A DNA stretch of 64,000 nt, from assembly GCA_012517355.1 (NCBI GenBank), contig JAAYVD010000050.1, positions 23,350 through 87,349 on the forward strand. The letters are read 5' to 3'. Positions 19,701-52,584 of this stretch are shown in pieces (position 1 is the first letter of the stretch; each line of letters starts with the position of its first letter). Source of the DNA: Candidatus Rifleibacteriota bacterium (GTDB taxonomy: Bacteria > Muiribacteriota > Ozemobacteria > Ozemobacterales > Ozemobacteraceae). A model generated the notes under the pieces. That model made no database searches and was not told the origin of the DNA. It saw only the letters and a list, made by a program, of their open reading frames with translations. The position numbers were made by a program, and so were the translations under genes.

Positions 19701-20251
19701 CGGGCCGCCGCCAGTCGGGCGGGAAGGTCCTTCCGCCGGGCCTGGAGGCGCTCGGCCTCGGCCAACTCGGCCGCCAGCTGGTCGGCCAGTCCCTTCCCGT
19801 CGGCTTCGGCCCGGTCGAGAGTCTGCTCGAGGACAGTCAGGGGGGTTCCCGACCCGATCAGCGGGGTCACGCCGGACACCCCGGCGGCCACCAGGGCCTT
19901 CAGGCGGGCGATCTCGGCGGGCGCCGCCCGGACCTGGTCGGTGAGGGCCCGGAACCGGGCATGCGCATCGGTCATCGCCTGCAAGGCCGTCAGGGTCTGC
20001 GTGAGCGTCTCCTTCAGCGCCTGGTGCGTCTCCGAGGCGGTCCCCCCTCCTTCCAGGTCCTTGAGCCACTTCTCGACGGATTCGCGGGTGGGGACCCCGG
20101 TTCCCGCCGCGAACACGCTCCCGGGGCCCCATCCGGCTGGGAACAGGAGGACGAGGAGGCCCACCAGCACGGCAAGGACGACAGCGCCGGGAGCGCGGGG
20201 AGCGTGACTCCAGCGGCTGGAATGACGGCAGGCGGGGCGACGGGACATGGC
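16718..20251 (-). CDS. MscK/KefA-like large mechanosensitive channel (MscS family) with a long periplasmic coiled-coil N-terminal domain, about 1177 aa.
   Basis: Signal/TM at the N-terminus, then about 500 aa of coiled coil, then about 11 TM helices. C-terminal MscS signature GLILLFERPLRVGDIVTVGDTTGAVTRIQIRATTLMNADRKEVVIPNKELITGRLMNWT. Start taken at the internal Met (MSRRPACRHSS...); the exact start is uncertain. Confidence 0.8.
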   Translation of the reverse strand, partial: AMSRRPACRHSSRWSHAPRAPGAVVLAVLVGLLVLLFPAGWGPGSVFAAGTGVPTRESVEKWLKDLEGGGTASETHQALKETLTQTLTALQAMTDAHARFRALTDQVRAAPAEIARLKALVAAGVSGVTPLIGSGTPLTVLEQTLDRAEADGKGLADQLAAELAEAERLQARRKDLPARLAAARQRGEALTEKIAALVPAEAGDDAGLGLLQAQNGQAQEETRLYQLELDQFGTTLELSRLRRELLTIRKEAAEIQAQTFRRLVDDRRRREAAAAVVQAQETARDLGIDTPVLANLAQENAAWAAERHEVALRMEGSSREVASLTHLLARLRDDHRSLRDKIQAIGFSDAIGLLLRVKRAELPSSGSFQEGQARRAEEISLTQLRLIEIEEALAQDRDLDARARDLVAGAAGSAGALTGSQRSALEAKVKTLLRQRREILENAQRDLSARLTRLVDLDTLSRQASQKSREFAAFIDERVFWVRSCQPLGVADLGRAIRGVSWLVSPSRWAEVAWALGRAFRRRPLLMIALLAFWTAILASRLRLNARLAEIGALVQRAATDRFRLTLEAIVLTVCWAAPWPLLMWIFSLGISLYPGPGGFSETVAVQLAALALPLWGLETFRQVFRPDGLAAHHCHWHVTEVHPLLQRQARLLGAVVLPLLFLFQVVEQQAPDLVQVSLGRGLLVAMLLAGAWLLDPVTRPAGPVMQAVGQVSRERFIYRLRYLLFFLAVVLPVVMIPACLMGYVYTANRLWGKAVQSLVLILGCNLAYAVFWRALHVHRRSLALHKSQAMKAVVQVPSPTEGEEGRSEVAPAATGAGPGGAAHAEPSIFQISAQTEKLLFAVLAVAMLIGVFQIWAEVFPALRILDQVKLWTTDAQILEAVTGPDGGVRREWVQRTVDITLFDLLVAIGLIALTISATNNLPGFIEFAVLQRLDLEAGVKFAVRTLSSYVIGLIGFVVVMETVGLGWDKIQWLAAGVSVGLGFGLQEIFANFISGLILLFERPLRVGDIVTVGDTTGAVTRIQIRATTLMNADRKEVVIPNKELITGRLMNWTLSDPILRIVFPVGVAYGSDLEKVRHHLMLVARTHPKVLTDPAPQVVLTGFGNSSLNIEVRVYISGMDGFPDFQHEMNQRICRVLGENGIQIPFPQQDVTITNWDRRPDGPGTPGAGAGKPATG

Positions 20252-20306
20252 GGTCTCCTGGACAGACGTGTTCACCGGCCGCCGGCATGGCCGGGGGGGG
20301 GCCGGT

Positions 20307-21032
20307 TCACCACTCGAAATAGAACTTCTCCCCCGGCAAGCCCATCTGTTGGTGTGGGGAGATCGGCTTCTCGCGCGGGCTGTAGGTGGTGGGGCGGATC
20401 TGGTCGGGCAGCACCGTCCGTTCGAGCTGGATGCCTTCGAACCAGACGGCATGCGAAGCGGTGTCGGGCGAGGTGTTCTCGAGCACGAGGCTGGTGCGGC
20501 TGGCCAGGCTGGGGGAATGGGTGTATTCGAAGGTCACGTAGAGCCGGTGCCAGGGCTGTGGACCCTGCCCCGGAGCCTCGAGGGTAGCCCGTTCGCGCAC
20601 CCCGGCATACACGGGCGTCCCGTACCGGGTGGCCACGCCCTGCGCATCGACCTCCACCCCGTCGTAGCCGACCTCGTCCCCATCGTCGTCGGTCCGCAAA
20701 AACCCGATGGCGGCCGCACCGCTGCCGGGGCAAACCCAGCCCGACAGGATGTAGCGGTTCTGCCCGGGAGGCGGGGCGAACACCCCGGTGGCGATCTCCT
20801 GCCACAGGGTGCCCGCGGGCAGGACGGGATGGGCCGGGGGAACCCCCGGCTTCGGCGGCTTGGGAGGCTTGGGCGGTTTGGGAGGCTTGGGCTTGCGCGC
20901 CGCCAGAACCGGCGGTGCCGATGGCAGCAGGCCGCTGCCCGGCCACCCGGCCGGCCACCCCAGGACCATGCCCAGAAGCAGGATTCCCAGGACACGGACC
21001 GCACCGGAGGTGGGGGTGGTCACGGGTTGCAT
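20307..21032 (-). CDS. Small secreted protein: signal peptide, (K-P-P)n linker and a ~150-aa C-terminal domain shared with the 3553-aa giant protein. Ends ...FYFEW.
   Basis: Signal-like MQPVTTPTSGAVRVLGILLLGMVLGW. Linker KPKPPKPPKPPKPPKPG encoded by a 9-bp tandem DNA repeat. C-terminal block NRYILSGWVCPGSGAAAIGF...SLVLENTSPDTASHAVWFEGIQLE...RPTTYSP...FYFEW aligns with the last 150 aa of CDS 41923..52584. It is 55 nt upstream of the MscK gene and co-oriented with it. Confidence 0.5.
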   Translation of the reverse strand: MQPVTTPTSGAVRVLGILLLGMVLGWPAGWPGSGLLPSAPPVLAARKPKPPKPPKPPKPPKPGVPPAHPVLPAGTLWQEIATGVFAPPPGQNRYILSGWVCPGSGAAAIGFLRTDDDGDEVGYDGVEVDAQGVATRYGTPVYAGVRERATLEAPGQGPQPWHRLYVTFEYTHSPSLASRTSLVLENTSPDTASHAVWFEGIQLERTVLPDQIRPTTYSPREKPISPHQQMGLPGEKFYFEW

Positions 21033-21115
21033 GCGCAGTCTCCTCACGGGGATTTCCGCCATTGTGCCAGAAGCGGGGCCCACCGTCCAGTGGCCGGGGC
21101 CGGGGCCGGCCCCGT

Positions 21116-24100
21116 CTACTTCGTCTTCAGGTGGTAACTGCCGTCCCAGTCCGCGGGCGGCGGCTCCACGCGGAAGGAGGCGATGCGCTCGAGATAGGTG
21201 CGGGAAGGACCATCATCGGGCAGGAGGGCCAGCACCTGCTGCAGAGCCGCTTCGGCGGCATCCCAGTTCCGGGTCAGATACCCGGAGATCCCGTCGCTGT
21301 ACAACGGCAGGACGCGCTCCCACAGGGCGTCGTCCTCGCCTTGTTCCCCGATCAGATGGAAAACCCGGATCGGTTTCTTCTTCCCCTTCACGGCCAAAAA
21401 GTCGAGGAACCGGGTGCGCAGCCCGCTGCCGGCCAGCAGCTCGTTGGTGCTCTCGGACACCATCATCAGCGTATCGTAGGCCTTGTTGGCCCCCTCCAGG
21501 CGGGAGGCCAGGTTGACCCCGTCTCCCAGGCAGGTGAAGTTCATCTGCGCCGAACTGCCGTAAAAACCCACCATGCATTCGGCCGTGTTGATGCCCGCCC
21601 GCATGGTCACGTCGGGCAGACCCCTCGCCTTCCATCCCCGCCGCAACTCCGCCAGCCGCTTCTGCATCGCGATGGCGCATCGCGCCGCCCGGACGGCGTG
21701 GTCCTTCTGCGGCGCGGGATGGTTCCAGAAACACATCACCGCGTCGCCGATGTACTTGTCGAGAGTGCCGTCGAAGGCGAAGACGAGGTTCGTCATCTCC
21801 CCCAGGTACTCGTTCATCAACGCCCCGAGCTGCTCCGGGGAGAGCATCTCCGAGATCGTGGTGAAGCCCGCCAGGTCGGTGAACATGACGGTGAGCGTGG
21901 TCTTCGCCCCGCCCGGCCTGACCGCCGACGGGTTGGCCACGATCTCCTCGACCATCTTCGCCGACACGAACCGGCCGAACGAACTGCGCACCTGCCGTTC
22001 GCGCCGCCGGGACTCGGTGTAGGCGTGGAACCCCCGCCCCACGCCGAACGAGCCCAGCACCAGCACCGGCAGTGCCACCGGCAGCAGCCATCCGGCCAGG
22101 AAAAGGGCCAGCGAGACCGAGGTCCAGGCCGTGGTCAACAGCAGGGTCCAGGCCCCGCCCGTCATCGCGCCGCGCCGCGCGATGCGCCGGTCGAGCAGGA
22201 ACAGGAACGGCAGCAGGGCCAGAAGGTTCCAGACCGGCCAGGCCACCGGCGAGGCGTCGGGGTGCAGCACGGTCGGCCGCAGGAACTCTCGCCGCAGGAG
22301 GGCCGAGCACAAGTGGGCGTGCAGATTGACCCCGGCCATCTTCTTGAAATCGCGGTCGAGGAAGTTCACCGGGGTCACCTGGAAATCCTGGTCCTCACCG
22401 AGATGCGACCCGAAGAAGACCGTGCGCCCCGCGAACCGGCCGGCCAGCCGGTTGCCCGTGCCCCGCTGCCCGGCGGCATCACAGAACACACGCCAGGTCC
22501 CCGGCGGGAAGGCCGCCCCGCCCTCGCCCCCGGCCACCGCCCACCGCCGGGCGTCCGCCGGCGAGGGGCCTCCGTCGATGGCCCGGCCGGCCGATGACCG
22601 GAAGACCACCCGGCCCGCCACCGGGAATCCGGCGGGCAGGCGGAAGGCGACCGGAACCGGATCGAGGTCGGCCGGGGTCGGGGAAAGGGGTCCGGTCAGG
22701 CGCACCGTTTCGCCGGTCCACAGGTCGGGTTCGACCGGGGCGGCCGCCGATGGCCCCGCCGGGTCGGCGGTGGCCGGCGCGGAGGCGGGTTCCGGCCGGC
22801 CCAGGGTGACGCGCGCCCCCAGGGACGACGGCAGCCCCGACACGGTCACCCCGTCTTTCCCCGGGGCCACCCGGACCGTGACGAGGAACCGGGCGGACCA
22901 CGGGGTCCCCGTCTCGGTGAAGGCCACCGTGCGCCCGGCGGCGGGGCGGCCGTCTGCCGCCCGCACCCGGCCCCGGTCGTCGAGGGACAAGGCGGGGCCA
23001 TCGTCGAGCGCGTTCACCTCGAACCCGGCCGGGACACCCATGGCTGATTCGCCGGCCGCGGGTACACCGGCCGCGGGGACACCCGCCGCGGGGGCGTCGG
23101 CCGCCACCGCAGGCTTGGACCCGGGTTCGGACGGCCCGCCTTCCGGCAGTCGGTCCCGGACCAGGAGCCCACCGGTGGATGCCGGCGGCCCCAGGGGCTG
23201 CCCCGAAAGGCCGAGCCGCTCGATCCAGACCGGATCCCCCGTCACCACGAGGATCTGCGGCACGAGGGCGGCCGGCACGCTGGCCACCAGGGTCACGCTG
23301 CCCGCCAGGAACCGCCCGGGGGCGAGCGTGACGGCCGGCTCACCGGCGGCCACCCCGACGGTGGTGGCAAGGGTCTGCGACCGGGAGGCGACGGGATCGT
23401 CGTCGATCCAGGTCAGTTCCACCGAGTAGGAACCAGGGGGCAGGCCGCCGAGGCGGAAAACCCCGTCGGGCCCGGTCGTGGCACTGGCCCAGAACCCGCC
23501 CCCGGTCTGCCAGGCCCAGGCCTCCACTCCCGCCAGCGGCTTCCCCGCCTGGTCGAGGGCCCGACCGGCGATCGTACCCGACCCCGGGTCGGCCAGGTCG
23601 AAGGCGAGGTCGACCGGCTCGGAGGCGGCGAGCCCCGGCGCCACGGTCAGGGCATTCTGCCCGCCTTGCGAGAGGGTTCCCAGCAACAGCGCGAGAGAGA
23701 CGACCCGGATGCCGTCGCCCTTCAGCGGCCACGACTGCCGGCTGAACGGAACTCGCAGGCAGGGCGCGAGCGGGGAACCCATCCAGGGCAGACCGCCGGG
23801 CGGCAGATCCAGCCAGGTGACCGGCGCCAGCCCCGTGAGCGGCATCTGGTCGGCCACCTCTTCCCAGATCACGGCGGTCCGGCCGGTCGCACCAGTCTCC
23901 GTCGGATCGGCCCGGGAAGGGGCCTCATCAAGGCCCTCCCGGTCAGCCGGGCCGGTAGCCGACCGGCCGGGCTCCGAGGCGACCGTCCCACCGCGGTCCA
24001 GGCCCACCGGGGGATCCCCGCCCTGCCCACGGACCGCCGGCAGGGCGGAACCGGAGCCGGCCCCCGCTCCGCCGGCACCGTGCGCTGGCTCCGCCTGCGC

Positions 24101-25138
24101 AGGAGCGGGGTTCCCTGCCCCGAGGTCATCACCGGGACCGGCCACGACAGGCCGCCCTGCCCACCCCCCGGCCGCCCAGCGGGCCAGCCAGCGTAGTTCC
24201 CAGCGGCGCAGCATCCGGTCGAGCCCGGCGTGGGTGGTCCCGTGGAAAGGCCGGGGACCAGCCCCCACAGCCGCCTGCAGCCACGCGGCCGCCCGCTCCC
24301 GCAGACGGGGGCCGGGCTCGGGAACCGGCGGCAGGGCGGCCGCCCCCCGCCCGGCCTCGGCGTCGGCCAGTTGCCGGCGGATCCAGGCGGCCACGCCCAG
24401 GGTGGGCAGGTAGTCCTCCCCGGCTTCGGTCAGGAAGGCCAGCGGGATGTAGCGAACCACCCCGTCCAGATCGAGGAAGAGATTGGTCAGGCCGAAGTCC
24501 GGGGCAGCCGCTGCCACCGGGCCGTACAAGGCCAGAGGCGGCGGGGGCCGTTCCCGGAAGGTCCCGCCCAGGGACAGCTGCTCGACCCCGCCGATCGCCT
24601 GCCGCCGCAGGAACTTGCGGCCGAGCAGCGGCCCGGGGAACGCCCGCAATGCCGCCACGAATGGCCGGTCGGTCTCCTCCTGTTGGGCCTCGTCGAACAG
24701 GAAGTCGAAGGCCGCCACCCGCACCCCGGCCGAGGCGAGGATCCCGAGGGCCTGGGCAAAATCGGCCCGGTGCGGAGGCCGGCCGAACACCTGGGGAAAG
24801 GTATCGTCCTTGGCCACGACCACCACGGGGTGGTCGGGAGGCGACCGCAGGGGAAGCACGAAGAACAGGTCGAACACCTTCCCGTCCAGCCAGGCGAGAA
24901 GGTGCCGGGGCAGAGGGACGAGCGCGACCAGGCACACCAGGACCGGCACCAACAGCAGCCAGCTCCCGGAGACGCCGGGGCCGGTCCCCGACAGGGCGTC
25001 GGGGGGCGAACCGGCCGGGGGGGGAACCGGGGCGCCGCCACCGCTTTCCCGCGCCACCCCCCCGCGGCCCGTCACGGCCGTCGCCGGGGGAGCAGCGCCC
25101 GCCGTGCCTGCCCCAGGTGGCTCACCGTGACCGTTCAC
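21116..25138 (-). CDS. CHASE2-domain membrane sensor fused to a class III adenylate/guanylate cyclase, with a long periplasmic middle region containing carboxypeptidase-regulatory-like beta-sandwich repeats, about 1340 aa.
   Basis: CHASE2-like N-terminus (LLLVPVLVCLVALV...HPVVVVAKDDTF...VAAFDFLFDE). Middle region with GVFRLGGLPPGSYSVELTWIDDD-type repeats. C-terminal cyclase TLTVMFTDLAGFTTISE...LDKYIGDAVMCFWN...GINTAECMVGFYGS...GDGVNLASRLEG. The exact start is uncertain. Confidence 0.75.
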   Translation of the reverse strand: MNGHGEPPGAGTAGAAPPATAVTGRGGVARESGGGAPVPPPAGSPPDALSGTGPGVSGSWLLLVPVLVCLVALVPLPRHLLAWLDGKVFDLFFVLPLRSPPDHPVVVVAKDDTFPQVFGRPPHRADFAQALGILASAGVRVAAFDFLFDEAQQEETDRPFVAALRAFPGPLLGRKFLRRQAIGGVEQLSLGGTFRERPPPPLALYGPVAAAAPDFGLTNLFLDLDGVVRYIPLAFLTEAGEDYLPTLGVAAWIRRQLADAEAGRGAAALPPVPEPGPRLRERAAAWLQAAVGAGPRPFHGTTHAGLDRMLRRWELRWLARWAAGGWAGRPVVAGPGDDLGAGNPAPAQAEPAHGAGGAGAGSGSALPAVRGQGGDPPVGLDRGGTVASEPGRSATGPADREGLDEAPSRADPTETGATGRTAVIWEEVADQMPLTGLAPVTWLDLPPGGLPWMGSPLAPCLRVPFSRQSWPLKGDGIRVVSLALLLGTLSQGGQNALTVAPGLAASEPVDLAFDLADPGSGTIAGRALDQAGKPLAGVEAWAWQTGGGFWASATTGPDGVFRLGGLPPGSYSVELTWIDDDPVASRSQTLATTVGVAAGEPAVTLAPGRFLAGSVTLVASVPAALVPQILVVTGDPVWIERLGLSGQPLGPPASTGGLLVRDRLPEGGPSEPGSKPAVAADAPAAGVPAAGVPAAGESAMGVPAGFEVNALDDGPALSLDDRGRVRAADGRPAAGRTVAFTETGTPWSARFLVTVRVAPGKDGVTVSGLPSSLGARVTLGRPEPASAPATADPAGPSAAAPVEPDLWTGETVRLTGPLSPTPADLDPVPVAFRLPAGFPVAGRVVFRSSAGRAIDGGPSPADARRWAVAGGEGGAAFPPGTWRVFCDAAGQRGTGNRLAGRFAGRTVFFGSHLGEDQDFQVTPVNFLDRDFKKMAGVNLHAHLCSALLRREFLRPTVLHPDASPVAWPVWNLLALLPFLFLLDRRIARRGAMTGGAWTLLLTTAWTSVSLALFLAGWLLPVALPVLVLGSFGVGRGFHAYTESRRRERQVRSSFGRFVSAKMVEEIVANPSAVRPGGAKTTLTVMFTDLAGFTTISEMLSPEQLGALMNEYLGEMTNLVFAFDGTLDKYIGDAVMCFWNHPAPQKDHAVRAARCAIAMQKRLAELRRGWKARGLPDVTMRAGINTAECMVGFYGSSAQMNFTCLGDGVNLASRLEGANKAYDTLMMVSESTNELLAGSGLRTRFLDFLAVKGKKKPIRVFHLIGEQGEDDALWERVLPLYSDGISGYLTRNWDAAEAALQQVLALLPDDGPSRTYLERIASFRVEPPPADWDGSYHLKTK

Positions 25139-40505: not shown

Positions 40506-41121
40506 GCGAAGTCCTCCCCGAATGGATTCCGATCGGAAGACCATGGTAGCAGATTTCCCCCAGGGACGCACCGGGCTCCACCCATCGAATTTGTGTGGTT
40601 TTCACACGGCCTTGGTTTTCCCATTGAAACGCCTGGCCACCCTCTGGGGACTTCGGAGAAAGATAGGGGAATGGGAAGGCTATAGGACTCTCTTGCTACC
40701 TCGAGAACAAGCCGGTTTGCATCGGATTATCGTGTAATTTTTGCACGGTAGTAGGCAAGGGGGAACCCCTGGTTTTGCTTTCGTCTTTCTGAAAAATGAC
40801 GCGCCATGGTCCGAACAGGGGAACTCCCACTGATCAGGATGGCGAAGAAAACCATTAGCCCATCCGGGTGATAGCCGGATTCCATGGGATGGGGAGAGGG
40901 CCTGGACATCCCCCTCACCGAACGGAACCTCGCTCGGAAAAAAGGGTCGCCGGTCTGGAAGGATAAGTTCCAACGACGAGGCGGCTCCTCGCCCCTGAGG
41001 GGGACCAGCTTCCGAGGATAGAGGGACAACCCAATCCCTTCGCATGGCCGGCATGGAACTTGCTCGCTCAAGGATAGGGTACACGCCCTTACACCATGAA
41101 ATCCTAGGGAAAGGAACCCCT

Positions 41122-41841
41122 ATGAGCCCTCAAGTCCTAAGAATTCCGTTCCCCTCAGGAAGATCCCAAGGTCCCCTGGGCAAGCTTTTCGGCCTCATCA
41201 AGGGTGTTCCTGGGGAAACCTGGGTTAGATGGCTGGACCGGCTGATTGTGGCCCTGGTTTTCCTGACCATCTGCCTCCTGGGACTCCGCGCCTGGAACAA
41301 CCGATCGGCCCCGATGCCTCCCCTCCCCCAACCTTTTGCCATCCCAGCCACCATCCAGGCCCGTCAACCGCCGCCACCCGGCCAATCGATCCATGAAGCC
41401 CTTCGATTGAGCCCTCAGACCCGATCTCTTGGAGAAGTCCTCCTGAAATCAGGATCCCTGGCCTTCAACCGGGGAGACTTTCCCGCGGCCATCCAGGCGT
41501 TCACCCAGGCCAAGGCTCTGTTGCCGGGCCACCCCGCCCCCCTGGCCGGTCTTGCCCAGATCGATCGGAAGGTTCGCAGCGCCCGGATCTGGACGGACAT
41601 CTCCCGGGATGCCGCGGAGGGAAACCTTCCCCAGGCATGGGAAAAGTTTTCCGCTGCCACCCGGCACAATCTCCCTTTCTTCCTCGACTACGCCCCCCAA
41701 TTTGCTTCGGTCCTCGAAGAACGGGGGGAAGCCGCCTCGGCCGCGGCCATCTTGATGACCTTTTGCCAGTTGCGACCTCAGGCCCAGCGGGAGCATAATC
41801 ACCTGAGGGAGCTCGGAAAGCGGTTCGCTCAGGAGAATTGA
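41122..41841 (+). CDS. Hypothetical membrane-anchored TPR-like protein, 239 aa, with lower GC than the surrounding DNA.
   Basis: ATG at 41122 (AGGAA upstream). One TM (WLDRLIVALVFLTICLLGL). TPR-like helix pairs (GDFPAAIQAFTQAKALLPGHPAPLAGLAQI). GC is visibly lower than the window average. Confidence 0.5.
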   Translation: MSPQVLRIPFPSGRSQGPLGKLFGLIKGVPGETWVRWLDRLIVALVFLTICLLGLRAWNNRSAPMPPLPQPFAIPATIQARQPPPPGQSIHEALRLSPQTRSLGEVLLKSGSLAFNRGDFPAAIQAFTQAKALLPGHPAPLAGLAQIDRKVRSARIWTDISRDAAEGNLPQAWEKFSAATRHNLPFFLDYAPQFASVLEERGEAASAAAILMTFCQLRPQAQREHNHLRELGKRFAQEN

Positions 41842-41922: not shown

Positions 41923-44900
41923 GTGGGACTTTTCCTGTTTGTTCCCTTAGCCCCCCTGGTCGCCCTCAATCAATTGTCCCAACCCGCTTTCGACGCGAAC
42001 GGCACCTGGACCTGGGACAACAACATCACCCGGGGAGCTCTCGACACATTTACCAGGAATGCCGGAGGAGGATACTCGGACGCGATTCTCACCTCCAATA
42101 ACACCAGGCGCGATGGCATGCTCCACCAGATCTTCACGACGCCGGCCGCCGGGCCCGTCAACGCCAGGGTGAGAGCGGGTTACCAGACCACCAATACCGC
42201 CGGCTATACCAGTTTCAGCCTGTTGGGAACCGTTCGGGACACCACCTCCGGTGCCTACCCCAACGAAGGGTTGGTCCTCACTTTTCTGAACCGTTCCACC
42301 CTCAATGTCACCGGATGGCAGGCCTCCGGATGGTCCACGGAAAGCCAACTGTCCGCAGGCCGGTCCTACCGGGTCCAGATCTACCACGACATCAATGTGA
42401 CCGGTTTCAACACCAATGTCACGGCCAATATCGATAACGTCTACTGCAACACCAGCCCGGTGAACCTGCGAGCCTCCCGCAGCGGAGCCGATATCGTCCT
42501 GAACTGGGACACCAGCACCGGCGTGGGAACCCTCGCCAATTACCGGGTTTACTACAGCACCACCGGGGTGGCCGGCTCTTTCGTCTGGCTTGCCAACGTG
42601 CCCGCCGGCACCACCAACTACACCCACGTCTCCCCCGGGACGTTATACTATTACGCCGTATCCGACGTAGAAACCGTCACCGGCGACGAATCCCCCCTCT
42701 CCGTGGCGGTCCTTCCCCCCAACATCACCATGGCCGGCGCCAAGAACGTGAACGAGGACACCGACTCGGCCGCGATCACCGACTTCAACTGCACCGGCAG
42801 CGCCGTCTGCTACCCGGTGACCATCGTCCTCACCGTCAGCAACGGCACCCTGACCATGACGAACAACGGGTGCACCACGTTTTCCAACAACGGCACTTCC
42901 CAGGTCACCATCGCAGGGTCCCTGACCGCCCTCAACAATACCCTTGACACCCTCATCTACCGGGGATCCCTGAACTTCTACGGCTCGGACAACCTGAACG
43001 TGAACTTTTCGGGCATCGACATGGGGAACGTGGCCATCACCGTCACGCCGGTCAATGACGCCCCCTCGTTCACCAAGGGGGCCGACCAGACCGCCGAAGA
43101 GAACTCCGGGGCAAAAACCGTGGCCGGATGGGCCACCGCCCTGTCCACCGGGCCGGCCAACGAGTCGTCCCAGTCCATCGCCGGGTTCGTGGTGACCAAC
43201 GACAACAACGCCCTCTTCTCGACCCAGCCCGCCGTCGCCGCCGATGGCACCCTCACCTTCACCCCGGCGGCCTCCGCCAATGGAACCGCCATCGTCACCG
43301 TCCAGGTCCAGGACAACGGAGGGACGGCCAATGGCGGGGTGAACACTTCCGCCGCCCAGACGTTCAGCATCGTCATCTACCACGTGAACAGGGAGCCCTC
43401 CTTCACGAAGGGGGCCGATCAGGTGGTCGCCGAGGATGCCGGCCTCCAGACGGTGGTCGGATGGGCCACCAGCCTGAACCCCGGCCACCCCAGCGAGGGA
43501 GGCCAGGTGCTCGATTTCCTGGTGTCCAACGACAACAACGCCCTGTTCTCCAGCCAACCGGCCATCGCCGCCAACGGCACCCTCACGTTCACCCCCGCCG
43601 CCAACGCGGCCGGGGTCGCTGTCGTCACCGTCCAACTCCACGACAACGGCGGCACCGCCAACGGAGGCGATGATACCTCCCCCGCCCAGACGTTCACCAT
43701 CACCGTGACGGCGGTGAACGATGCCCCCACGATCACCGTTCCCGCCCCCCAATCCGTCTTCAAGAACGGCTCCCTGACCCTGTCCACCGGGAACGGGAAC
43801 CTCATCACCATCGCCGACCCCGATGCCGGCGGCAACCAGATCCAGGTCGGCCTGTCGGTTTCCCAGGGAAAGCTGAAACTCAACGGCACCGGGGGCCTGA
43901 CCATCACCGCGGGCGGCGATGATACCGCCGCCATGACCATCCGAGGAACTCTGGGGAACCTCCAGGCCGCCCTGGATGGCCTCGTCTACACCCCTTCCAC
44001 CGGCTTCACGGGAGCCGACACCCTCGCCGTCCTGCTCGACGACCTCGGCAGCACAGGATCCGGTGGCCCCCTGACCGACAGCGATTCGGTGAGCCTGACC
44101 GTGCTGGTGCCCCCCAACACCGCCCCTCCCACCGGCCTGGAGGCCCTGCCCTCGGGAGGAGGCATCTACCTCGGATGGAACCCCAGTCCTCCCGAGAACG
44201 GCGCTACCGTCGTCAGCTACCTGCTGTACCGCAATCTCACCCCCAACGATCCGGCCGGGGCCACCCTGATCCAGACGCTGCCCGCCGGAACCACCAGCAC
44301 CACCGACACCTGGTTCGGTGACCCCCACTACTACTTCATCCGCGACCTCGATTCGAACGGGCAGACGTCCCCCTACTCCAGCCAGGTGTCGGTCGCCCAG
44401 GCCTTTCCCGTCTACGACGGCTTGCGCGAGGACCTCGACTTTTCCTGGAACCCGGACCGGGTGGAAGTGAACTGGGTCCATCCCAACGTCGACTTCAGCG
44501 GCTACCGCGTGGCGGTGGGCACCACCCCCGGCTCCACCAACGTCCTCGACTGGACGCCGGTCGGCACCACCGACCATGCCACGTTGGCGGTCTCCCCACC
44601 CCTGGCCTCCGGTACGACGTATTTCACCTCGGTCCAGTTGATCGACCCCCTCGGCAACCTTTCGACCCTCTCGACCTCCAACGGATTCACGGTCAGGGGT
44701 GACCAGATCCTGATCGACACTTCGAACACCGGGTATTTCAAGTATGCGCGGGCCCTGGTCAACCTCGATACGACCACCGACCCTGGCTCCCTCCGGCCCA
44801 AGACCTTCGCCGGAGGAGGGCTGTGGCAGTACCGGGTCAAGGTGACCGTGAAAGAACCGGGAGTCACCGCCCGCCTCAACGCCCCCTGCCACGTGACGTT

Positions 44901-47900
44901 CACCATCCCAGCCGGGCAGCAACCAGCCAGTGTCAACGAGTTCCGGGTGACCGACGAATCGGGGACGGAGATCCCGAGATACAACCTGACCGCACCGGCA
45001 GGTGTGGTCAGCACCGTGGCCACGCCCCATCTCGTGTTCCTGGTGAACCTGGGCAAGTCCGAAATCAGGAACTACTGGATCTACTGGGGAAACACCGGGG
45101 CCCCCAACCCCGGATACGGTTTCAGCGCCACCGCCTCCCTCACCTCGCGCACGGAGTGGACCCCGTACTATTCGCGAAAGCTGATGGAGCCCGGCATGGA
45201 GCCGATCACCATTTCCGCCGGCAACAACTTCGCCCTCAACGCCGGGGTCGATTTCCAGCGTGCCGCCGCCCCCGACAACATCCGGAACGCCAACGACGAC
45301 TGCTGGAGCGACCCGTTCAACCTCCCCTGGAACTTCTTCTTCTTCGGCACGAACGTCCAGAACAACTGGAAGGTGGACTCCAACGGCAACCTGTATCAGA
45401 ACAGCGTCGACAGCGGACAATGGGTCAACACCTGGGCCCGCTTCACCGGGGCGACCTGTTTCACGGCGGGACTGATCACCCCGGCCTGGCTCGACTACCG
45501 CTACAACAACGCCCCGTATCCCCCGAACCCAGGTTGCTATGGGAAGATCGAAACCTTCACCAACCCTGACCGCAAGGCCTTCACCTGGCGGGTGAACCGG
45601 TACTCCCTGACCGACGACATCTACCTTCACCAGGCCGTGGTCTACAGTACCGGTGACATCGCCCTTCGGTATGACCTCCTGAGCTACCGCGGCTGCTGGG
45701 ACACCGCCGGAGGCACCGACAACGAGGTGAACCTGGTCAACTTCACGGTCGGCATCAGCAACAACATCGGCAACTGGCTGCGCAGCACTCCCCTGACCGA
45801 GGGTATCGGGCTCACCCCGAGCTCCTTCTTCCAGTGCATGGACGCCTTCCGCAATTCCTACACGGTGGGTCCCATCGAAGGACCCACCGGGGCCTTCGCC
45901 AACCGGGGGAGCATCGAGTCCATCGTCTTCGATTCCCGATCCACCACCCCCCTGTGGGTCAGCCTCGACTACGAAACGGCCCCCACCGCCAACGGGCAGC
46001 TGGTGTTCTCCGTTCGGACAGGGGACACGTACGACCAGGCCGCCACGGGCACCTGGACCCTCCTCACGACGGTCACCAACGCCTCCCCCAACGGTTCGGT
46101 GCCCATTCCCGCCGGCATCGCCGGCAAACGGTATCTGCAATACCAGTGCGTCTTCCAGGGGAACACCGCGGCCGCGGCGCCGGTGCTGAACGAAGTGCGC
46201 CTGGTCTGCCGGGCGTTGAGCGTCGAAACGGTCACCGCCAGCACCTCGACAGGGGTCAGCCAGGGCCAGGACGGCATCCAGGTCGGAGTGACCTTCCGTA
46301 ACCACCACAACGCCGACATCACCATTCTCCCGGCCAACGCCACCCTTACCTTCTCTCTCGGCAGCTACACGGTGAGCGCCCCGGTGCTGGAGAACGGCGG
46401 GGTCGTGCCGCCCGGGGGTTCCATCACCGGCACATTCACCGTCAACGTCCTGGACGACTCGCCCACCGGGTCGGCCACCATCGACTGCATGGCCACCGGC
46501 ACGGCCGGAGCCCTCACCTTCGGCGACCGGGACGCCCAGAATCCCCATGTCTGGCGGGTTCTCAAGAAGGCCAAGATGGTGATCAGTTCCACCGACACCT
46601 CTCCCCCCACGGTGACCAAGGGCCAGGAATCCATCCCGGTCCGGGTCGCCATCCGCAACGACGGGGAAGCCCCCTTTACCCTCGATTCTGCCTCCCTGAC
46701 TTTCCCCCTCGGTCATTATCTCATCACCTACGGGACACCCCCCTTCGGAACCGTCGTCCCAGGCGGCACCGGCATCACCGCCGAATTCTCCGTCACCATC
46801 CTGGTGACCAGCCCCTCGGGAGTCTCCCTGATCAACGCCTTCGCCTCCGGGACCAACACCTTTTCGGGAAAATCGGTCGAGGCGACCGGATCCCTGGTCC
46901 TCGATTCCTGGATCATCCAGAACGAAGCCGCGCTGATCCTGACCGAAATCCTGGCCTCGCCCACGGTCTACCGCGGCCAGGCCAATGCTCCGGTCCTGCT
47001 CAAAACCGTGAACGAGGGCGAAGCCGCAGGGGTCTGGGCGAGTTCGGTGGTCGATTTCACCCCGATCGACCTCCCGCCCCGCACGTATCTCTCGAAAACC
47101 CCCGTCAGCAGTTTCCCCGTCACCATCCAGGGCGGCGGGGGATTCCACGTCGCCCGGTATGCCATCACCGTCTCCCCTTCCTCGGCGACCGGAACCGACG
47201 ACATCGAACCCACCATCCATTACACCGACAACAACGTGAAGGTGGAGGTCACCTATTCCTCCCCCTACTCCCTGGCCAGCTGGACGGTGGTGTCGCAATT
47301 GATCGGCACATACAAGGACGCGGCCTTCCAGTTCCCCTCATCGAGTTTCAACCAGCCCCTGAGCGGCACTCGCACGGTCCATGCCCGCGGCACGAACATG
47401 GACGGATTCACCGACTACGTGGTGCGCTGGTTTGATCCCGGCAACCAGGAAGTGGCTTCGAGCCCCGTCCTGACCGGTGACGCGTCGGGAACGCTTTCCC
47501 ATTCCTACGACCTCACCCCTGTCTCCCCGCCCGGCGGGTGGGTGGTCAAGGTCACCGACCCCCTCAACACCTACACCGCCTGCCAGACCCTGTTCGACGT
47601 GGTCAGCCCGGCCAGCCTTTCGGCCCGGGTTTCCCTGCCGCCCTCGGTCTCGGTGGGGCAGCCGTTCCCCCTCCTCATGACCTTCGCCAATGCCGGCGGG
47701 GCCATCATCAACGGCGCCTATCCCAGCCCCCTGCAGATATCGGGGGCGGGTTCCGCGGTGGTGGCCTCAGGCCCCACCCCGGTCGTCCAGGCGGTGGGAG
47801 GGTATGGGCAAGCAACCTTCACCTGGGGCCTGGTGGCGGTGGCCCCGGGCACCTTCACCGCCAGCGCCACGGGCTACGGCTTCGACGCCAACTCGGACGA

Positions 47901-50900
47901 TTTCCTGACCAGCCTGTATTCCTCGGCCAGCACCAACATCCAGAATCCCCCCAACGTCGCGATCACGTTGGTGACCGCCACCCCGACCGTGGTCTACCGG
48001 AACCAGCAGAATCTCGAAGTCCAGGTACGGGTGCGCAACACGGGTTCGTCGACGGCCCTCGTGGACGCGGCCAGCCTGACCTTCACCGCCGGAAGCTTCA
48101 CGCAGGCCCTGACCGACCCACCCCTGCCCTACAGCCTGGGCGGCTCGGGAGCGGCCGCCACCTTCACCTTCTCCATCGACGTGGCGGTCGATTCCCCGAC
48201 CGGCCTCTCCGCCTTCAGCGGGTATCTGCGTTTTTCCGACAGCAACTTCCCCGCCTCCGTCACCGTCATCAGCGCCCCCACCCCGAACGACAGCTGGACG
48301 GTGGCCACCATCGGCCTGCTCCTGTCCAACAATATCGCCTACGATCCCCAAAACTACACCTTCGTTCCCGGCCAAACCATCTACAGCCGCGCTTTCGGCC
48401 TGACCCCCGGGTCGTCCTGGTACCGCATCCGTTTCTACTCCCGGGAAATCCCCAACTCCTCCCCCGCTCCGGCCGGATGGGCCTATGTCTCCTCGCAACT
48501 GGCCGCCAACGCCTCGGGCACCGCCGACTTCCTGTATCCCATCCCCGCGGGATCGACTCCGGGAAAATGGAGCGTCGAGATCGAAACGGACCCCGACCTC
48601 AATTCCGGCACCCTCGGCACCCTGCTCGCCGTCCAGTATCTCGACCTCCAGGCCCCCGGCACCTTGCAGGCCAGCCTGACCCTCTCGCCCGTCGCCCCCT
48701 TCGAGGGCGACCTGGTCACGGCCACGCTCGACGCGGGGAACTGCCTGTCGACCGCCGCCTCCCTCATCACCCCGGCCACCGCTTCGGCCCTTGTGAAGAC
48801 CGGCATCTACGGTGACCTGACCTATGTCAGCGGCCCAACCCCCGCCTCGGCCTCTGTCCCCGCCATGGCCACGGCCACCTTCGTCTGGACCTACACCGCC
48901 GCCTCCAGCACCGGCCTCACCGGCTCGCTGGCCATGACCACGCAGCTGGCGTCATCCGTGACCGGCATCGAGGTCAACCGCGGGGTGGCCGCCGCCGGGT
49001 CGGCCCAGGCCGTCTCCAACCCCATCCGGATCTACCGCCGGGCCCTGTCGATGACCGCCACCAACACCTGGTATCAGGGAACCATCGCCCCGGGCACGAC
49101 CGGCGCCCCGGTGCCGGCCACCGTCATCAACACCGGCAACGCCACCCTCTCTGCCATCATGTGGAACACCGTCGACCTGAACGGCCCCAGTGGCAACAAG
49201 ATACCTTACAGCTCGCTCTCCCTGTCCCCCTCCCCGGTCTCGACCGTCCTTTCCCCATTGTCCCCGGCCGCCACGAGGGGCCTCTCCTCGCAATTGGCCG
49301 TTCCCTTCAACAAGACCGCCGGCCATTACATCGCCACCATGACCCTGTTCGAAGACCTCTCGGGGAACGGCAGCCGCGACCCGCTCGAGCCCTATGTCCT
49401 GTTCGCCCTCGACGTCGATGTGCCCGCCACCCAGAGCCTGTTCGTGCCCTCAGCCATCGTCGACCTGGGCGACTGGCCCCCGAACTCCTTCACCGGCAGC
49501 CAGACCATCACGATCATGAGCGTCGGCAATCTCGACCTGACCGACGTGAAGTTCGAAACCCCGCCGGTCGCCACCGATACCTTCTTCCGGGCCGCCCCTC
49601 TCTCCCTTGGCGGACTGTCGGTCGTCTCCCCGACCAACCTGACGACCGCCGAGGTGTCGGCCGACATCCCCAACCTGGCGCCCGCCCTCCACAAGCGCTA
49701 CATCGCCACCTGGACGGTCTACGAAGACACGGACCACAACGGCAGCCGGTCAGCCGCCGAGCCGGTCAAGGCGACCTTCCAGGTCCGCGTCAACATCGGA
49801 GCGGTCGACTTCAGCCTGACCTCGCCCGTCGACCTCGGGGTGGGGACACCCAGCACCGTCGTGCCGAGCAAGCCCCTCCAGATCACCAACGTCCCGGGCA
49901 CCCTGGATTTGTCACGCCTGCGGACCACCTACGGCGACCTCACCGGAAGCGGGCATACCATCCCCGCCGCCAACATCAACCTCGTCCATCCCTCCTCCAT
50001 CGCGGTCGGTGCCACCGGATACGCCTCGGTGACCATGCTGGTCCCCGCCGGCACCTATGCGACCACCTATTCGGGCATCCAGTGGGTGTATGAAGATGTC
50101 AACGGGAACGGCACCTGGAACACCGGAGAGGCCTCCCGGCCGTTCACCCTCACGGTGACCGTGCCCAGTTATCCGGCCATCCAGGTCCAGACCTCCCTGG
50201 TCTCGTTCGGCGACCTGACCGAGGGAGCCGTGGCCACCGTGACCTTCAACTGCAGGAACACGGGTAACGTCGACCTGACCGCCCTGCGCTGGCAGAAGCC
50301 CAACCTGGTCTCGGGGGGGAACACCATTGGGGCAGCCCAGTACTGGTTCCCCCCGACCGCCCCCACCTCATCTTTTACCGTCCCTGCTGGAACCTTCTTC
50401 TCCCAGGCCGTGACGATCACCGTCCCCAACCCGCAGGCCTACGGCGATTACACCGCCACCCCGGTCTGGTTGTACAACGACACCGATGGCGATTACCCGG
50501 TGACCGTGGAGCCCGGCGAACCCCAGAGCGCCTTCACCCTCCACGCCAAGATCGGAACCGTCTCCCTGGACATCCTGGAAAGCCAGGTCACCACCACGGG
50601 GGTTCCCGCCGCGGTTTCCGACCCCGGCGCCTACAACGTCAAGAACACCGGCAACCTGTCCCTGATCCGTCCCATGGCCAGCGCCACCACCAACCTGGTC
50701 GGCCCCTGGACGATCTCCGCCACGGCCAGCCAGTTCACCCCCAACCCGCTGGGAGTCACCATTCCCCTGCAGACCTCGGCGGGCCAGTGGCGGGTGACCG
50801 TCCCGGCGGGGGCGCCGGCGGGCGACTACCTCGGAACCCTGACGGTCTGGAACGATGCGAACGCCGATGCCAAGATCCAGAGTACCGAGGCCCGCGACAC

Positions 50901-52584
50901 CGCGCCGTTGAAGCTGACGGTGACCGCAAAAAAGGTGATCCAGGTGGTCGAAAACCCGGTCAACCTGGGCCTGGCCACCCAAGGGATGAGCGTCACCCGG
51001 GGCATCACCATCGTCAATGCCGGCAACGTCGACCTGGGCCGGCTCCGCGGGTGGGCCGGAACCCTGGAATACCCGGGATTCGACACGATTCCCGCCGCCA
51101 ACGGCACCTTCACTTCGAACCCGATCTGTCTCAACCTGACCACCGGTGCCGCCCCCGTCCCCGCCACGTTCACGGTCACCATGAAGACCAACCAGGCCCT
51201 GGGCCCCTACGCCTCAGACACCTTCTTCATCTACGAGGATGCCAACAACTCCGGCGATTACACCAGCGGCGAGGTGTTCGCCACCTTCACCGTCTCGGTG
51301 CAGGTCGCCCGCATGGCCATCAGCGTCACCTCGCCCCCTGCCCCCTTCGGGAATCAGAACCCGGGGGCAACGGTCTCCCAGGGGTTCACCATCCGCAACT
51401 CCGGCAGTTTCCCGCTGACCGCCAACGTCAAGTGGCTCCCCCGGGCCATGGAGGGTGGCGGGAACGTCATCGCCACGGCGGCCACCACCTTCCCCCCGCC
51501 CTCGCCCGCCGTCCCTTTCACCATGCTGGTCGGGGACACGTTCGCCTGCTCGGTGCGGCTGACCATCGCCTCGACGACCCCGCCGGGGACCTACCTCGGC
51601 ACCCACACGGTCTGGGCCGACCTGGACGGGGAAGGCGACCTCGACGACACCGAAGCCTCCGCCACCTTCCAGACCTCGGTCACCGTGAACGCCGTGGCCT
51701 CGCTGACGCTGCTGCCCGACACCGCGCACCTGGGCTCGTGGGCCCCCACCCAGACCACCACGCCGGTCGAGGTCGGCTTCCAGAACACGGGCAACACCAC
51801 CCTCTCCGGGTTCACCTGGGGAACCTACCTCGACCTGCTGAACGGGCTCGGTGACAGCATTCCCGCCACCCTCTTCTCGTCGGCCGCGCCGGTCTCGGTC
51901 GCCGCAGGGGCGTTCGCCACCACCACCGTCTGGGTCGGCCCTCTGCCCGACGTCCCGGTGGGGACCTACTCCCGGACCGGGTTCACGTTCCAGGCGGGCG
52001 CCGCCGGCGATTCCTGTTCCTTCACCCTCCACCTGACCCATTCCCTGCACCCGGTCCCCGACGTGGGCTCCGGCAGCGTGTTCCAGGCGGTGGCCACCTC
52101 CACCTTCGCGGCCGTCCTCCCGCCGGAGGACAACCGGTTCATCATCTCCGGCTGGGTCTGTCCCGGTTCCGGCGCCGCCGCCCTCGGCTTGTTCCTCGCC
52201 AGGAGCGACCAGTCGGAGGCAGGATTCCTGGGTGTGAAGATCGCCTCCACCGGCGCGGTGACGCCCCTCGGGGGCGTCGTCGAGGCGGGCATCCTGGAGC
52301 GGATCGTCCTGCCCGATGCGGCCGGAGTCATGCAGACCTGGTACCGCGTCTACGCCAGCTTCGATTACACGTTCACGGAGACGGTGGCCAGTTCCACCAG
52401 CCTCGTCCTGAGCAACGAGTCGCCCACGACGGCCAGCCATTCCGTCTGGTTCGACGCGGTCCAGTTCGAACAGGCCGTCTTCCCCGAACAGACCCGGCCG
52501 ACCAGTTTCTCGCCCGGCCGCAAGGTGGTGTCCCCCAACCAGGGCCTCGACCTGGAGGGGCGTCGCATCTACTACGAGTGGTAG
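41923..52584 (+). CDS. Giant secreted adhesin-like protein, 3553 aa. Contains tandem cadherin-like/VCBS-type Ig domains (NDAP...TLTFTPAANANGTA...DNGGTANGG), FN3-like domains, a long run of ASH/choice-of-anchor-D-like beta-sandwich repeats, and a ~150-aa C-terminal domain shared with CDS 20307..21032.
   Basis: GTG start at 41923 with hydrophobic leader GLFLFVPLAPLVALNQ. Four or more NDAPSFTKGADQ...LTFTPAA(S/N)ANGTAIVTVQVQDNGGTANGG repeats. FN3-like segments (TAPPTGLEALPSGGGIYLGWNP...). Dozens of about 100-aa repeats of the form VTFxCRNTGNVDLTxLRW...xGxYxGTLTVWxDxN-type. C-terminus ...SGWVCPGSGAAALGLF...ASHSVWFDAVQFEQ...RIYYEW. Confidence 0.8.
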   Translation: MGLFLFVPLAPLVALNQLSQPAFDANGTWTWDNNITRGALDTFTRNAGGGYSDAILTSNNTRRDGMLHQIFTTPAAGPVNARVRAGYQTTNTAGYTSFSLLGTVRDTTSGAYPNEGLVLTFLNRSTLNVTGWQASGWSTESQLSAGRSYRVQIYHDINVTGFNTNVTANIDNVYCNTSPVNLRASRSGADIVLNWDTSTGVGTLANYRVYYSTTGVAGSFVWLANVPAGTTNYTHVSPGTLYYYAVSDVETVTGDESPLSVAVLPPNITMAGAKNVNEDTDSAAITDFNCTGSAVCYPVTIVLTVSNGTLTMTNNGCTTFSNNGTSQVTIAGSLTALNNTLDTLIYRGSLNFYGSDNLNVNFSGIDMGNVAITVTPVNDAPSFTKGADQTAEENSGAKTVAGWATALSTGPANESSQSIAGFVVTNDNNALFSTQPAVAADGTLTFTPAASANGTAIVTVQVQDNGGTANGGVNTSAAQTFSIVIYHVNREPSFTKGADQVVAEDAGLQTVVGWATSLNPGHPSEGGQVLDFLVSNDNNALFSSQPAIAANGTLTFTPAANAAGVAVVTVQLHDNGGTANGGDDTSPAQTFTITVTAVNDAPTITVPAPQSVFKNGSLTLSTGNGNLITIADPDAGGNQIQVGLSVSQGKLKLNGTGGLTITAGGDDTAAMTIRGTLGNLQAALDGLVYTPSTGFTGADTLAVLLDDLGSTGSGGPLTDSDSVSLTVLVPPNTAPPTGLEALPSGGGIYLGWNPSPPENGATVVSYLLYRNLTPNDPAGATLIQTLPAGTTSTTDTWFGDPHYYFIRDLDSNGQTSPYSSQVSVAQAFPVYDGLREDLDFSWNPDRVEVNWVHPNVDFSGYRVAVGTTPGSTNVLDWTPVGTTDHATLAVSPPLASGTTYFTSVQLIDPLGNLSTLSTSNGFTVRGDQILIDTSNTGYFKYARALVNLDTTTDPGSLRPKTFAGGGLWQYRVKVTVKEPGVTARLNAPCHVTFTIPAGQQPASVNEFRVTDESGTEIPRYNLTAPAGVVSTVATPHLVFLVNLGKSEIRNYWIYWGNTGAPNPGYGFSATASLTSRTEWTPYYSRKLMEPGMEPITISAGNNFALNAGVDFQRAAAPDNIRNANDDCWSDPFNLPWNFFFFGTNVQNNWKVDSNGNLYQNSVDSGQWVNTWARFTGATCFTAGLITPAWLDYRYNNAPYPPNPGCYGKIETFTNPDRKAFTWRVNRYSLTDDIYLHQAVVYSTGDIALRYDLLSYRGCWDTAGGTDNEVNLVNFTVGISNNIGNWLRSTPLTEGIGLTPSSFFQCMDAFRNSYTVGPIEGPTGAFANRGSIESIVFDSRSTTPLWVSLDYETAPTANGQLVFSVRTGDTYDQAATGTWTLLTTVTNASPNGSVPIPAGIAGKRYLQYQCVFQGNTAAAAPVLNEVRLVCRALSVETVTASTSTGVSQGQDGIQVGVTFRNHHNADITILPANATLTFSLGSYTVSAPVLENGGVVPPGGSITGTFTVNVLDDSPTGSATIDCMATGTAGALTFGDRDAQNPHVWRVLKKAKMVISSTDTSPPTVTKGQESIPVRVAIRNDGEAPFTLDSASLTFPLGHYLITYGTPPFGTVVPGGTGITAEFSVTILVTSPSGVSLINAFASGTNTFSGKSVEATGSLVLDSWIIQNEAALILTEILASPTVYRGQANAPVLLKTVNEGEAAGVWASSVVDFTPIDLPPRTYLSKTPVSSFPVTIQGGGGFHVARYAITVSPSSATGTDDIEPTIHYTDNNVKVEVTYSSPYSLASWTVVSQLIGTYKDAAFQFPSSSFNQPLSGTRTVHARGTNMDGFTDYVVRWFDPGNQEVASSPVLTGDASGTLSHSYDLTPVSPPGGWVVKVTDPLNTYTACQTLFDVVSPASLSARVSLPPSVSVGQPFPLLMTFANAGGAIINGAYPSPLQISGAGSAVVASGPTPVVQAVGGYGQATFTWGLVAVAPGTFTASATGYGFDANSDDFLTSLYSSASTNIQNPPNVAITLVTATPTVVYRNQQNLEVQVRVRNTGSSTALVDAASLTFTAGSFTQALTDPPLPYSLGGSGAAATFTFSIDVAVDSPTGLSAFSGYLRFSDSNFPASVTVISAPTPNDSWTVATIGLLLSNNIAYDPQNYTFVPGQTIYSRAFGLTPGSSWYRIRFYSREIPNSSPAPAGWAYVSSQLAANASGTADFLYPIPAGSTPGKWSVEIETDPDLNSGTLGTLLAVQYLDLQAPGTLQASLTLSPVAPFEGDLVTATLDAGNCLSTAASLITPATASALVKTGIYGDLTYVSGPTPASASVPAMATATFVWTYTAASSTGLTGSLAMTTQLASSVTGIEVNRGVAAAGSAQAVSNPIRIYRRALSMTATNTWYQGTIAPGTTGAPVPATVINTGNATLSAIMWNTVDLNGPSGNKIPYSSLSLSPSPVSTVLSPLSPAATRGLSSQLAVPFNKTAGHYIATMTLFEDLSGNGSRDPLEPYVLFALDVDVPATQSLFVPSAIVDLGDWPPNSFTGSQTITIMSVGNLDLTDVKFETPPVATDTFFRAAPLSLGGLSVVSPTNLTTAEVSADIPNLAPALHKRYIATWTVYEDTDHNGSRSAAEPVKATFQVRVNIGAVDFSLTSPVDLGVGTPSTVVPSKPLQITNVPGTLDLSRLRTTYGDLTGSGHTIPAANINLVHPSSIAVGATGYASVTMLVPAGTYATTYSGIQWVYEDVNGNGTWNTGEASRPFTLTVTVPSYPAIQVQTSLVSFGDLTEGAVATVTFNCRNTGNVDLTALRWQKPNLVSGGNTIGAAQYWFPPTAPTSSFTVPAGTFFSQAVTITVPNPQAYGDYTATPVWLYNDTDGDYPVTVEPGEPQSAFTLHAKIGTVSLDILESQVTTTGVPAAVSDPGAYNVKNTGNLSLIRPMASATTNLVGPWTISATASQFTPNPLGVTIPLQTSAGQWRVTVPAGAPAGDYLGTLTVWNDANADAKIQSTEARDTAPLKLTVTAKKVIQVVENPVNLGLATQGMSVTRGITIVNAGNVDLGRLRGWAGTLEYPGFDTIPAANGTFTSNPICLNLTTGAAPVPATFTVTMKTNQALGPYASDTFFIYEDANNSGDYTSGEVFATFTVSVQVARMAISVTSPPAPFGNQNPGATVSQGFTIRNSGSFPLTANVKWLPRAMEGGGNVIATAATTFPPPSPAVPFTMLVGDTFACSVRLTIASTTPPGTYLGTHTVWADLDGEGDLDDTEASATFQTSVTVNAVASLTLLPDTAHLGSWAPTQTTTPVEVGFQNTGNTTLSGFTWGTYLDLLNGLGDSIPATLFSSAAPVSVAAGAFATTTVWVGPLPDVPVGTYSRTGFTFQAGAAGDSCSFTLHLTHSLHPVPDVGSGSVFQAVATSTFAAVLPPEDNRFIISGWVCPGSGAAALGLFLARSDQSEAGFLGVKIASTGAVTPLGGVVEAGILERIVLPDAAGVMQTWYRVYASFDYTFTETVASSTSLVLSNESPTTASHSVWFDAVQFEQAVFPEQTRPTSFSPGRKVVSPNQGLDLEGRRIYYEW

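Follow-up and report, generated by a model that had tools for sequence, protein, structure and literature searches.

The 64,000-nucleotide stretch analysed here (the window; positions 23,350 to 87,349 of contig JAAYVD010000050.1, Candidatus Rifleibacteriota bacterium) encodes two exported proteins that end in the same C-terminal module. One is a small protein consisting of a leader, a stretch rich in lysine and proline (K/P) and the module, with no other domain; the other is a giant protein built from immunoglobulin (Ig)-type repeats. The G+C content of the window is 69%, and the window therefore holds many shadow open reading frames (ORFs). Third-position G+C marks the small ORF (20307-21083, minus strand) and the giant ORF (41923-52584, plus strand) as real genes. 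Secretion is assigned here and below from hydrophobic N-terminal segments followed by AxA-like sites, as judged by eye. The coordinates of the features are collected in Table 1.

Table 1. Features of the two module-bearing genes and their neighbours (window coordinates unless a locus is named).
Feature	Position	Strand	Remarks
Small-protein coding sequence (CDS)	20307..21062	-	stop codon 20307-20309; start ATG 21062 (MAEIPVRRLRMQPV...) or ATG 21032 (start used in the original prediction)
Predicted signal peptide / hydrophobic leader	20898..21032	-	ends ...PPVLAA; read from sequence
Basic K/P stretch RKPKPPKPPKPPKPPKPG	20844..20897	-	predicted N-terminus of the mature protein; 9-bp DNA repeat
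Jelly-roll core of the small protein's module (predicted)	20418..20810	-	module residues 8-138
Module tail of the small protein	20310..20417	-	residues 139-174, 36 residues, conserved, ...DQIRPTTYSPREKPISPHQQMGLPGEKFYFEW-COOH
Giant exported Ig-repeat protein	41923..52584	+	3,553 residues from the first GTG; open frame from 41848
Giant's module copy	52048..52581	+	predicted jelly-roll about 52048-52473; tail 52474-52581, ending IYYEW
Membrane-anchored TPR-like protein	41044..41841	+	directly upstream of the giant; weak TPR matches
~190-residue pilin-like gene, example	L068:10638-11198		

In BLASTP the C-termini of the small protein and the giant share 84 of 178 residues (47% identity, 66% positives, E=3e-57), and the alignment reaches the final residue of each protein (FYFEW and YYEW, respectively). 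This bears out the original prediction that the C-termini of CDS 20307..21032 and CDS 41923..52584 align. The shared region had been put at about 150 residues; the alignment is real, but its extent is slightly greater, with 174 residues in the small protein (20310-20831) and 178 in the giant, where hmmsearch places the end of the module at the last residue of the ORF. A tblastn search with both copies as query revealed no third copy in the window. The ratio of nonsynonymous to synonymous substitution rates (dN/dS) is 0.15 for the small gene compared with a 90%-identical relative, 0.22 compared with Ca. Ozemobacter sibiricus, and 0.13 for the module of the giant. Both genes are under purifying selection.

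Reading all 1.84 billion representatives with HMMER identifies the module in 74 clusters, 69 of them below 1e-10. A profile query of a word-indexed database returned 21 small proteins, all annotated as 'hypothetical' and none with a Pfam domain; their organism names are without exception Candidatus Riflebacteria, Rifleibacteriota or Rifleibacterium. When a single domain served as query for a word-indexed search of 5.8 billion clusters, nothing matched, not even the query itself. Judged by every named source, the family appears to be confined to the uncultured phylum Riflebacteria. Scanning one genome per species yielded five module loci, two of which belong to one metagenome-assembled genome and are 95% and 92% identical to the two copies in the window. 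The locus of Ca. Ozemobacter sibiricus BY5 is 66% identical to the window small protein. A metagenome scan added 56 further loci. The locus set comprises 66 sequences (65 loci and the window), the six-frame ORFs of which were scanned by hmmsearch.

Throughout this set the end of the module coincides with the stop codon in intact ORFs; the exceptions are frameshifted (L055, L063) or fall one or two residues short (L024, L049, L051). The match likewise reaches the final residue in essentially all complete sequences among the 74 representatives, which terminate in G-x3-Y-[YF]-E-W. All 74 clusters carry the module at the C-terminus. No internal copy occurs in these clusters or in about 70 loci, nor any N-terminal or cytoplasmic one, so that the module always closes an exported protein; according to the original prediction, copies of those kinds would have argued against a sorting signal. 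Some divergent giants match just the second half of the profile, i.e. the last strands and the tail. A tail without a jelly-roll was not detected in any ORF of the 66 sequences (about 700 kb) with a tail-only hidden Markov model (HMM) combined with a search for the terminal motif by regular expression. The window has two carriers; contigs elsewhere have one to three each.

The small protein matches no Pfam or NCBIfam family at E<=1, and a Pfam/NCBIfam scan of 61 members gave BetaGal_ABD2 alone, in five members (best E=0.0043). Models of carbohydrate-binding module (CBM) families (CBM_4_9/CenC-like) gave no match above threshold, TIGR04183, TIGR04131 and Por_Secre_tail none at E<=1, and PDB sequences none with either a single sequence or the 61-member profile. 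When AlphaFold2 was given the two window copies only, the resulting model was poor, with a predicted local distance difference test score (pLDDT) of 62. With 61 sequences the pLDDT is 92.4 and the predicted template modelling score 0.86. This model comprises nine strands between residues 8 and 138, followed by 36 residues without regular secondary structure, along which the pLDDT drops from 89 to 61. Its structural neighbours (comparison scores in brackets) are the baseplate wedge protein gp46 of phage Pa193 (9.7, 134 residues aligned), the CBM-like domain of EngBF (8.9), an alginate-binding CBM (7.8), the CBM-CenC baseplate protein of phage phi812 (7.2), members of CBM22, CBM16, CBM4 and CBM61 (6-7) and TNF-like ligands (about 5.5). 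Foldseek against the PDB gave nothing below E=1e-3; on BFVD, structural and tail-fibre proteins of phages match best (E 3e-5 to 1e-3, template modelling scores 0.4-0.53). No sequence match to phage was obtained by tblastn against 50,697 phage records, and the Pa193 study assigns no function or ligand to the matched part of gp46 (PMC11456595).

As the fold comparisons match while no sequence family claims the module, its core of about 130 residues is, according to the AlphaFold2 model, a beta-jelly-roll of the CenC/CBM4-9 type at the level of the fold, without membership in any of these families. The possibility that the module would turn out to be a known CBM or jelly-roll thus holds for the predicted fold and fails for the sequence. 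It represents a new domain family, uncatalogued by sequence, of a well-known fold.

Core positions that are invariant or at least 90% conserved include Q11, S30, R96, N119, D132, G133 and E137, and the conserved polar and aromatic residues on the strands are Q11, S30, W94, R96, N119, D132, Q135 and E137. The tail is conserved to the same degree as the most conserved core strands: P147 and P159 are invariant, Q144, S158, G167, Y171 and W174 are at least 90% conserved, and the whole follows the motif Q-x-[RK]-P-T-x-[YF]-x4-K-[LI]-[VI]-S-P-x4-[LI]-x-G-x3-Y-Y-E-W.

The module carriers fall into two groups, giants of ~2,000-3,800 residues and small proteins of ~200-220 residues. Pfam matches in the window giant comprise fn3, cadherin-like, MG2 and HYDIN/DUF1573-type Ig domains; across the giants, NEW3-type Ig domains and a weak choice-of-anchor-D match are added to these. 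The window giant aligns with the 3,411-residue giant of a low-G+C relative in a single high-scoring segment pair of 2,750 residues at 41% identity, and with all other giants tested over more than 1,800 residues. The giants begin with Sec leaders followed by a conserved ALNQ/ALEQ start. From these alignments they constitute one colinear homologous family. Two other large exported proteins of the window lack the module: a 1,829-residue lipoprotein with seven Big_5 domains (29474-34963, plus strand) and a 1,879-residue protein (53499-59138, minus strand) that has a signal peptide and a hydrophobic segment near its C-terminus and matches nothing in Pfam. The premise that the module is appended to otherwise unrelated secreted proteins is therefore wrong, because the giants are colinear, the small protein has no other domain and other large exported proteins do without it.

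If translated from GTG 41923, its first canonical start, the giant has a leader (VGLFLFVPLAPLVA followed by LNQ) without a charged n-region. The frame is open further upstream, from 41848, and this part encodes ...RSLPAIHWFLWF, so that the actual start may be non-canonical or may have been mis-called. In the database, the copy of the giant (P0001) begins at an internal ATG. The giant's conserved N-terminal domain (ALNQLxNxxF...) shows no detectable homology to the C-terminal module (hhalign probability 0.6%) and thus gives no sign of being a copy of it. In some Riflebacteria two or three paralogous module-bearing giants lie on one contig (L051, L036/L038, L041/L056, L026); those of L051 (1319-8233 and 8900-15778) are arranged in tandem, each preceded by its own gene for a transmembrane (TM)-TPR protein.

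In the small gene, the spacer preceding the module is encoded by a 9-bp DNA repeat, as predicted; Tandem Repeats Finder places it at 20847-20892 (5.1 copies). The KPP peptide of the Ca. Ozemobacter sibiricus ortholog is identical to that of the window. Small paralogues in other genomes have classical leaders ending in AxA with a K/P-rich stretch directly after, and a second clade carries analogous KKKPKKKTP-type stretches, so that a basic K/P run right behind the AxA-like site is found in two clades. The small paralogues are conserved across the phylum Riflebacteria. In a neighbour-joining tree without support values they are polyphyletic, with every clade placed closest to giants from the same lineage. 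The small gene has a CHASE2-cyclase and an MscK-like channel as neighbours in both the window and Ca. Ozemobacter sibiricus (L002). In the window (16718-25138, minus strand) it is situated between genes for a 1,340-residue CHASE2/carboxypeptidase-regulatory-like/adenylate-guanylate cyclase protein and a ~1,200-residue MscK-like mechanosensitive channel, and this three-gene order is kept in L002. Together with the sequence identities, this places the window in a riflebacterium of the Ozemobacter lineage.

In relatives the two kinds of carrier are linked. The stop of the giant overlaps the start of the small gene by 11 nt in L068 and L069, where the small gene is in turn overlapped by a gene of ~186 codons. 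The giant is also followed by the small gene in L004, L005 and L040; in L006, L066 and L067 the giant lies less than 5 kb from the small gene, and a gene for 187-189 residues overlaps the latter. Of the 16 loci holding this gene of ~190 codons, 15 have it behind the final module-bearing gene; in L055 it is located upstream of the giant. The N-terminus of its product (RRG-ALLLMLLV...GGIVALRMLP) aligns in register with Geobacter PilA-N along the leader, the helix and the proline, and lacks Glu5. The matches are weak (Geobacter PilA-N in a PDB profile, E=0.03; GspG, E=0.16; Pilin_N, E=0.09), and we therefore call the protein pilin-like, the assignment being unproven. The gene was recorded in L005-L007, L027, L029, L032, L034, L036, L039-L042, L044, L048, L055, L057 and L066-L069, and in nearly all of these it directly adjoins and overlaps the final module-bearing gene. 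An HMM of this neighbour found no counterpart in the 64-kb window. Thus, relatives show the order giant, small gene, pilin-like membrane protein, and the genes are dispersed in the lineage of the window. Farther downstream the relatives carry housekeeping genes (ffh, rimM, trmD, lepB, galT-like), with no secretion apparatus or pilus machinery among them.

Homologs of the TPR-like protein upstream of the window giant adjoin giants in L026, L030, L059 and L060. Beside the giants of L047, L049, L051, L055 and L056 there are members of a second, similar TM-TPR family. Close to the giant/small/pilin-like operon of L069 lies a gene for an 819-residue riflebacterial protein (7170-9629, plus strand) that matches the shoulder domain of the major vault protein (MVP_shoulder) and, faintly, Vault_3. 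Elsewhere in the window, a 710-residue ORF without Pfam match (38110-40242, minus strand) has a C-terminal Cys/His repeat coded by a 12-bp tandem repeat (38131-38226, 8 copies). As a radical SAM/SPASM enzyme (36161-38569) is encoded directly downstream on the same strand, the two may form a maturase-substrate pair.

With moderate confidence we favour a model in which the module is a binding or assembly head with a functionally important free C-terminus, and the small protein its matched partner, rather than an export tag. The module would sit at the C-terminal end of the giant, where the concave face of the predicted jelly-roll could bind a glycan or a partner protein as its ligand, and the tail with its free carboxy-terminus could form part of the ligand site or of an inter-subunit contact. 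The small protein might co-assemble with the module of the giant, tethering it via the basic N-terminus, or might supply an identical binding function independently of the fibre. A head fits better than a general export tag in view of the fold, the polar and aromatic residues conserved on the strands, the small number of copies and the restriction to a single family of carriers, and also because relatives have a domain-only paralogue whose gene is translationally coupled to that of the giant. The homology of the two copies, the rarity of the family, the linkage of small gene and giant in relatives, the grouping of small paralogues with giants of their lineage and dN/dS values of 0.13-0.22 likewise speak for this reading. 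The original prediction had offered a sorting or anchoring signal and a lectin-like module as alternatives. Because the carriers belong to a single family, the small protein is domain-only and other exported proteins lack the module, the binding branch fits better, and a general sorting tag becomes less likely.

Several observations weigh against a binding or assembly head. A lectin module pure and simple has no need of the extreme C-terminus at all ~70 loci, nor of a tail conserved like the best core strands; strict C-terminality and a strongly conserved tail are typical of sorting and anchoring signals. In the window the small gene lies 21 kb from the giant and is not accompanied by a pilin-like gene, so linkage between small protein and giant is not obligatory. 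Moreover, the copy number per genome comes from a pattern-limited scan, and the neighbour-joining tree that groups the small paralogues with their giants carries no support values.

An explanation is still required for the strict C-terminality and the near-invariant YYEW-COOH, and we keep as the main rival, unlikely but to be taken seriously, a dedicated C-terminal secretion or surface-anchoring signal that resembles in its logic the C-terminal domain (CTD) of the type IX secretion system (T9SS). An outer-membrane or pilus-like machine would read the fold together with YYEW-COOH, move the giant across the outer membrane and perhaps attach it, and the small protein would act as another cargo, or as a regulator or competitor of that route. 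Besides the invariably terminal position of the module and the conservation of its tail, this would account for the need of an outer-membrane route: Riflebacteria are reported to be diderm, with OmpM, and giants that start with Sec leaders must therefore cross an outer membrane. The overlapping downstream gene with its type-IV-pilin-like N-terminus and the weak choice-of-anchor-D match in the giant point in the same direction. However, one to three carriers per contig, all from one protein family and its cargo-less paralogue, are few for a sorting signal, and the two other large exported proteins of the window manage without the module. No T9SS CTD or other sorting-signal model matches, the predicted fold is a 130-residue CBM-type jelly-roll rather than an Ig-like CTD of ~80-100 residues, and no tail-only proteins occur in about 700 kb of related loci.

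Further proposals are less probable still. The module could be a C-terminal oligomerisation head of the TNF/C1q or phage receptor-binding type, one copy from the giant and copies from the small protein forming a hetero-oligomeric knob by which the fibre is capped or held in register. This is rather improbable, although baseplate and tail-fibre proteins of phages as well as TNF-like ligands or lectins are among the structural neighbours, translational coupling ties the domain-only paralogue to the giant in relatives, and small paralogues follow the giants lineage by lineage. Equally doubtful is the idea that jelly-roll and YYEW tail together provide recognition or assembly in a surface apparatus peculiar to Riflebacteria, with the giant and its domain-only paralogue mounted on, or exported via, the Glu5-less pilin-like protein as tip. 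It is very unlikely that the small gene is a decaying remnant of the duplicated 3' end of the giant, or the module an outer-membrane beta-barrel anchor with its terminal aromatic residue as the beta-signal for the beta-barrel assembly machinery: the small protein does hold nothing but the module, and its terminal Y-x-W does resemble the C-terminal aromatic signature of outer-membrane proteins, but dN/dS values of 0.15-0.22, an intact leader, synteny conserved in Ca. Ozemobacter sibiricus and phylum-wide conservation led us to reject a pseudogene, and a model of a soluble two-sheet sandwich with CBM neighbours a transmembrane barrel anchor or autotransporter translocator.

Riflebacteria are uncultured and have been reported to carry an unusually high load of unknown gene families (PMC10849945). 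The present analysis defines a phylum-restricted C-terminal module with a known fold class, an uncatalogued sequence family and a near-invariant free C-terminus, and, in relatives, a conserved gene trio of giant, domain-only paralogue and pilin-like protein. It provides annotators with a new domain model and with a marker for the largest conserved surface protein of the phylum, and is a reasonable lead for envelope biology. No surprising mechanism is demonstrated for the module. If it is simply a lectin head, it would be an ordinary adhesin tip with an unusual stand-alone copy. If the tail is a recognition signal, the question opens how diderm Terrabacteria export and anchor giant proteins, and the surface apparatus outlined above, if real, would be a new way to display or sort them.

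Among known systems, the CTDs of the T9SS in Bacteroidota (type A, TIGR04183; type B, TIGR04131) resemble the module in being folded beta-sandwiches that form the extreme C-terminus of surface proteins, many of them giant, exported by the Sec route. Dedicated partner genes lie adjacent to those of type-B cargo such as SprB. The module differs in that it is larger, of another fold class and without a match to the CTD models; it has one to three carriers rather than tens, belongs to a different phylum and exists in a cargo-less stand-alone copy. The many unrelated cargo proteins per genome seen for the T9SS have no parallel in two copies in 64 kb, carried by a single giant family and its paralogue. 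The layout of LPXTG, PEP-CTERM and GlyGly-CTERM signals (sortase/exosortase type), in which a hydrophobic helix and a basic tail come after a short motif, is likewise not found, as the ends ...GEKFYFEW and ...GRRIYYEW lack a hydrophobic segment.

Type IV pilus tip adhesins and modular pilins (PilY1 with minor pilins; S. sanguinis PilC with a lectin module) offer a second comparison, since in relatives the overlapping gene after the module-bearing genes encodes a pilin-like leader and a helix without Glu5. Tip pseudopilins lack Glu5. In contrast to such tips, pilin-likeness here amounts to E-values of 0.03-0.16, the window has no such gene and no pilus machinery is seen nearby. The receptor-binding jelly-rolls of phage baseplates and tail fibres (Pa193 gp46, phi812 CBM-CenC) are fold neighbours without sequence similarity to the module. 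CenC-type CBMs (CBM4/9/16/22/61; Pfam clan galactose-binding-domain-like) share with the predicted structure the same beta-jelly-roll sandwich fold. In contrast to them, the module matches no Pfam or NCBIfam CBM model and is borne by Ig-repeat giants instead of glycoside hydrolases, always as the last domain and with an additional conserved tail of 36 residues ending in YYEW-COOH.
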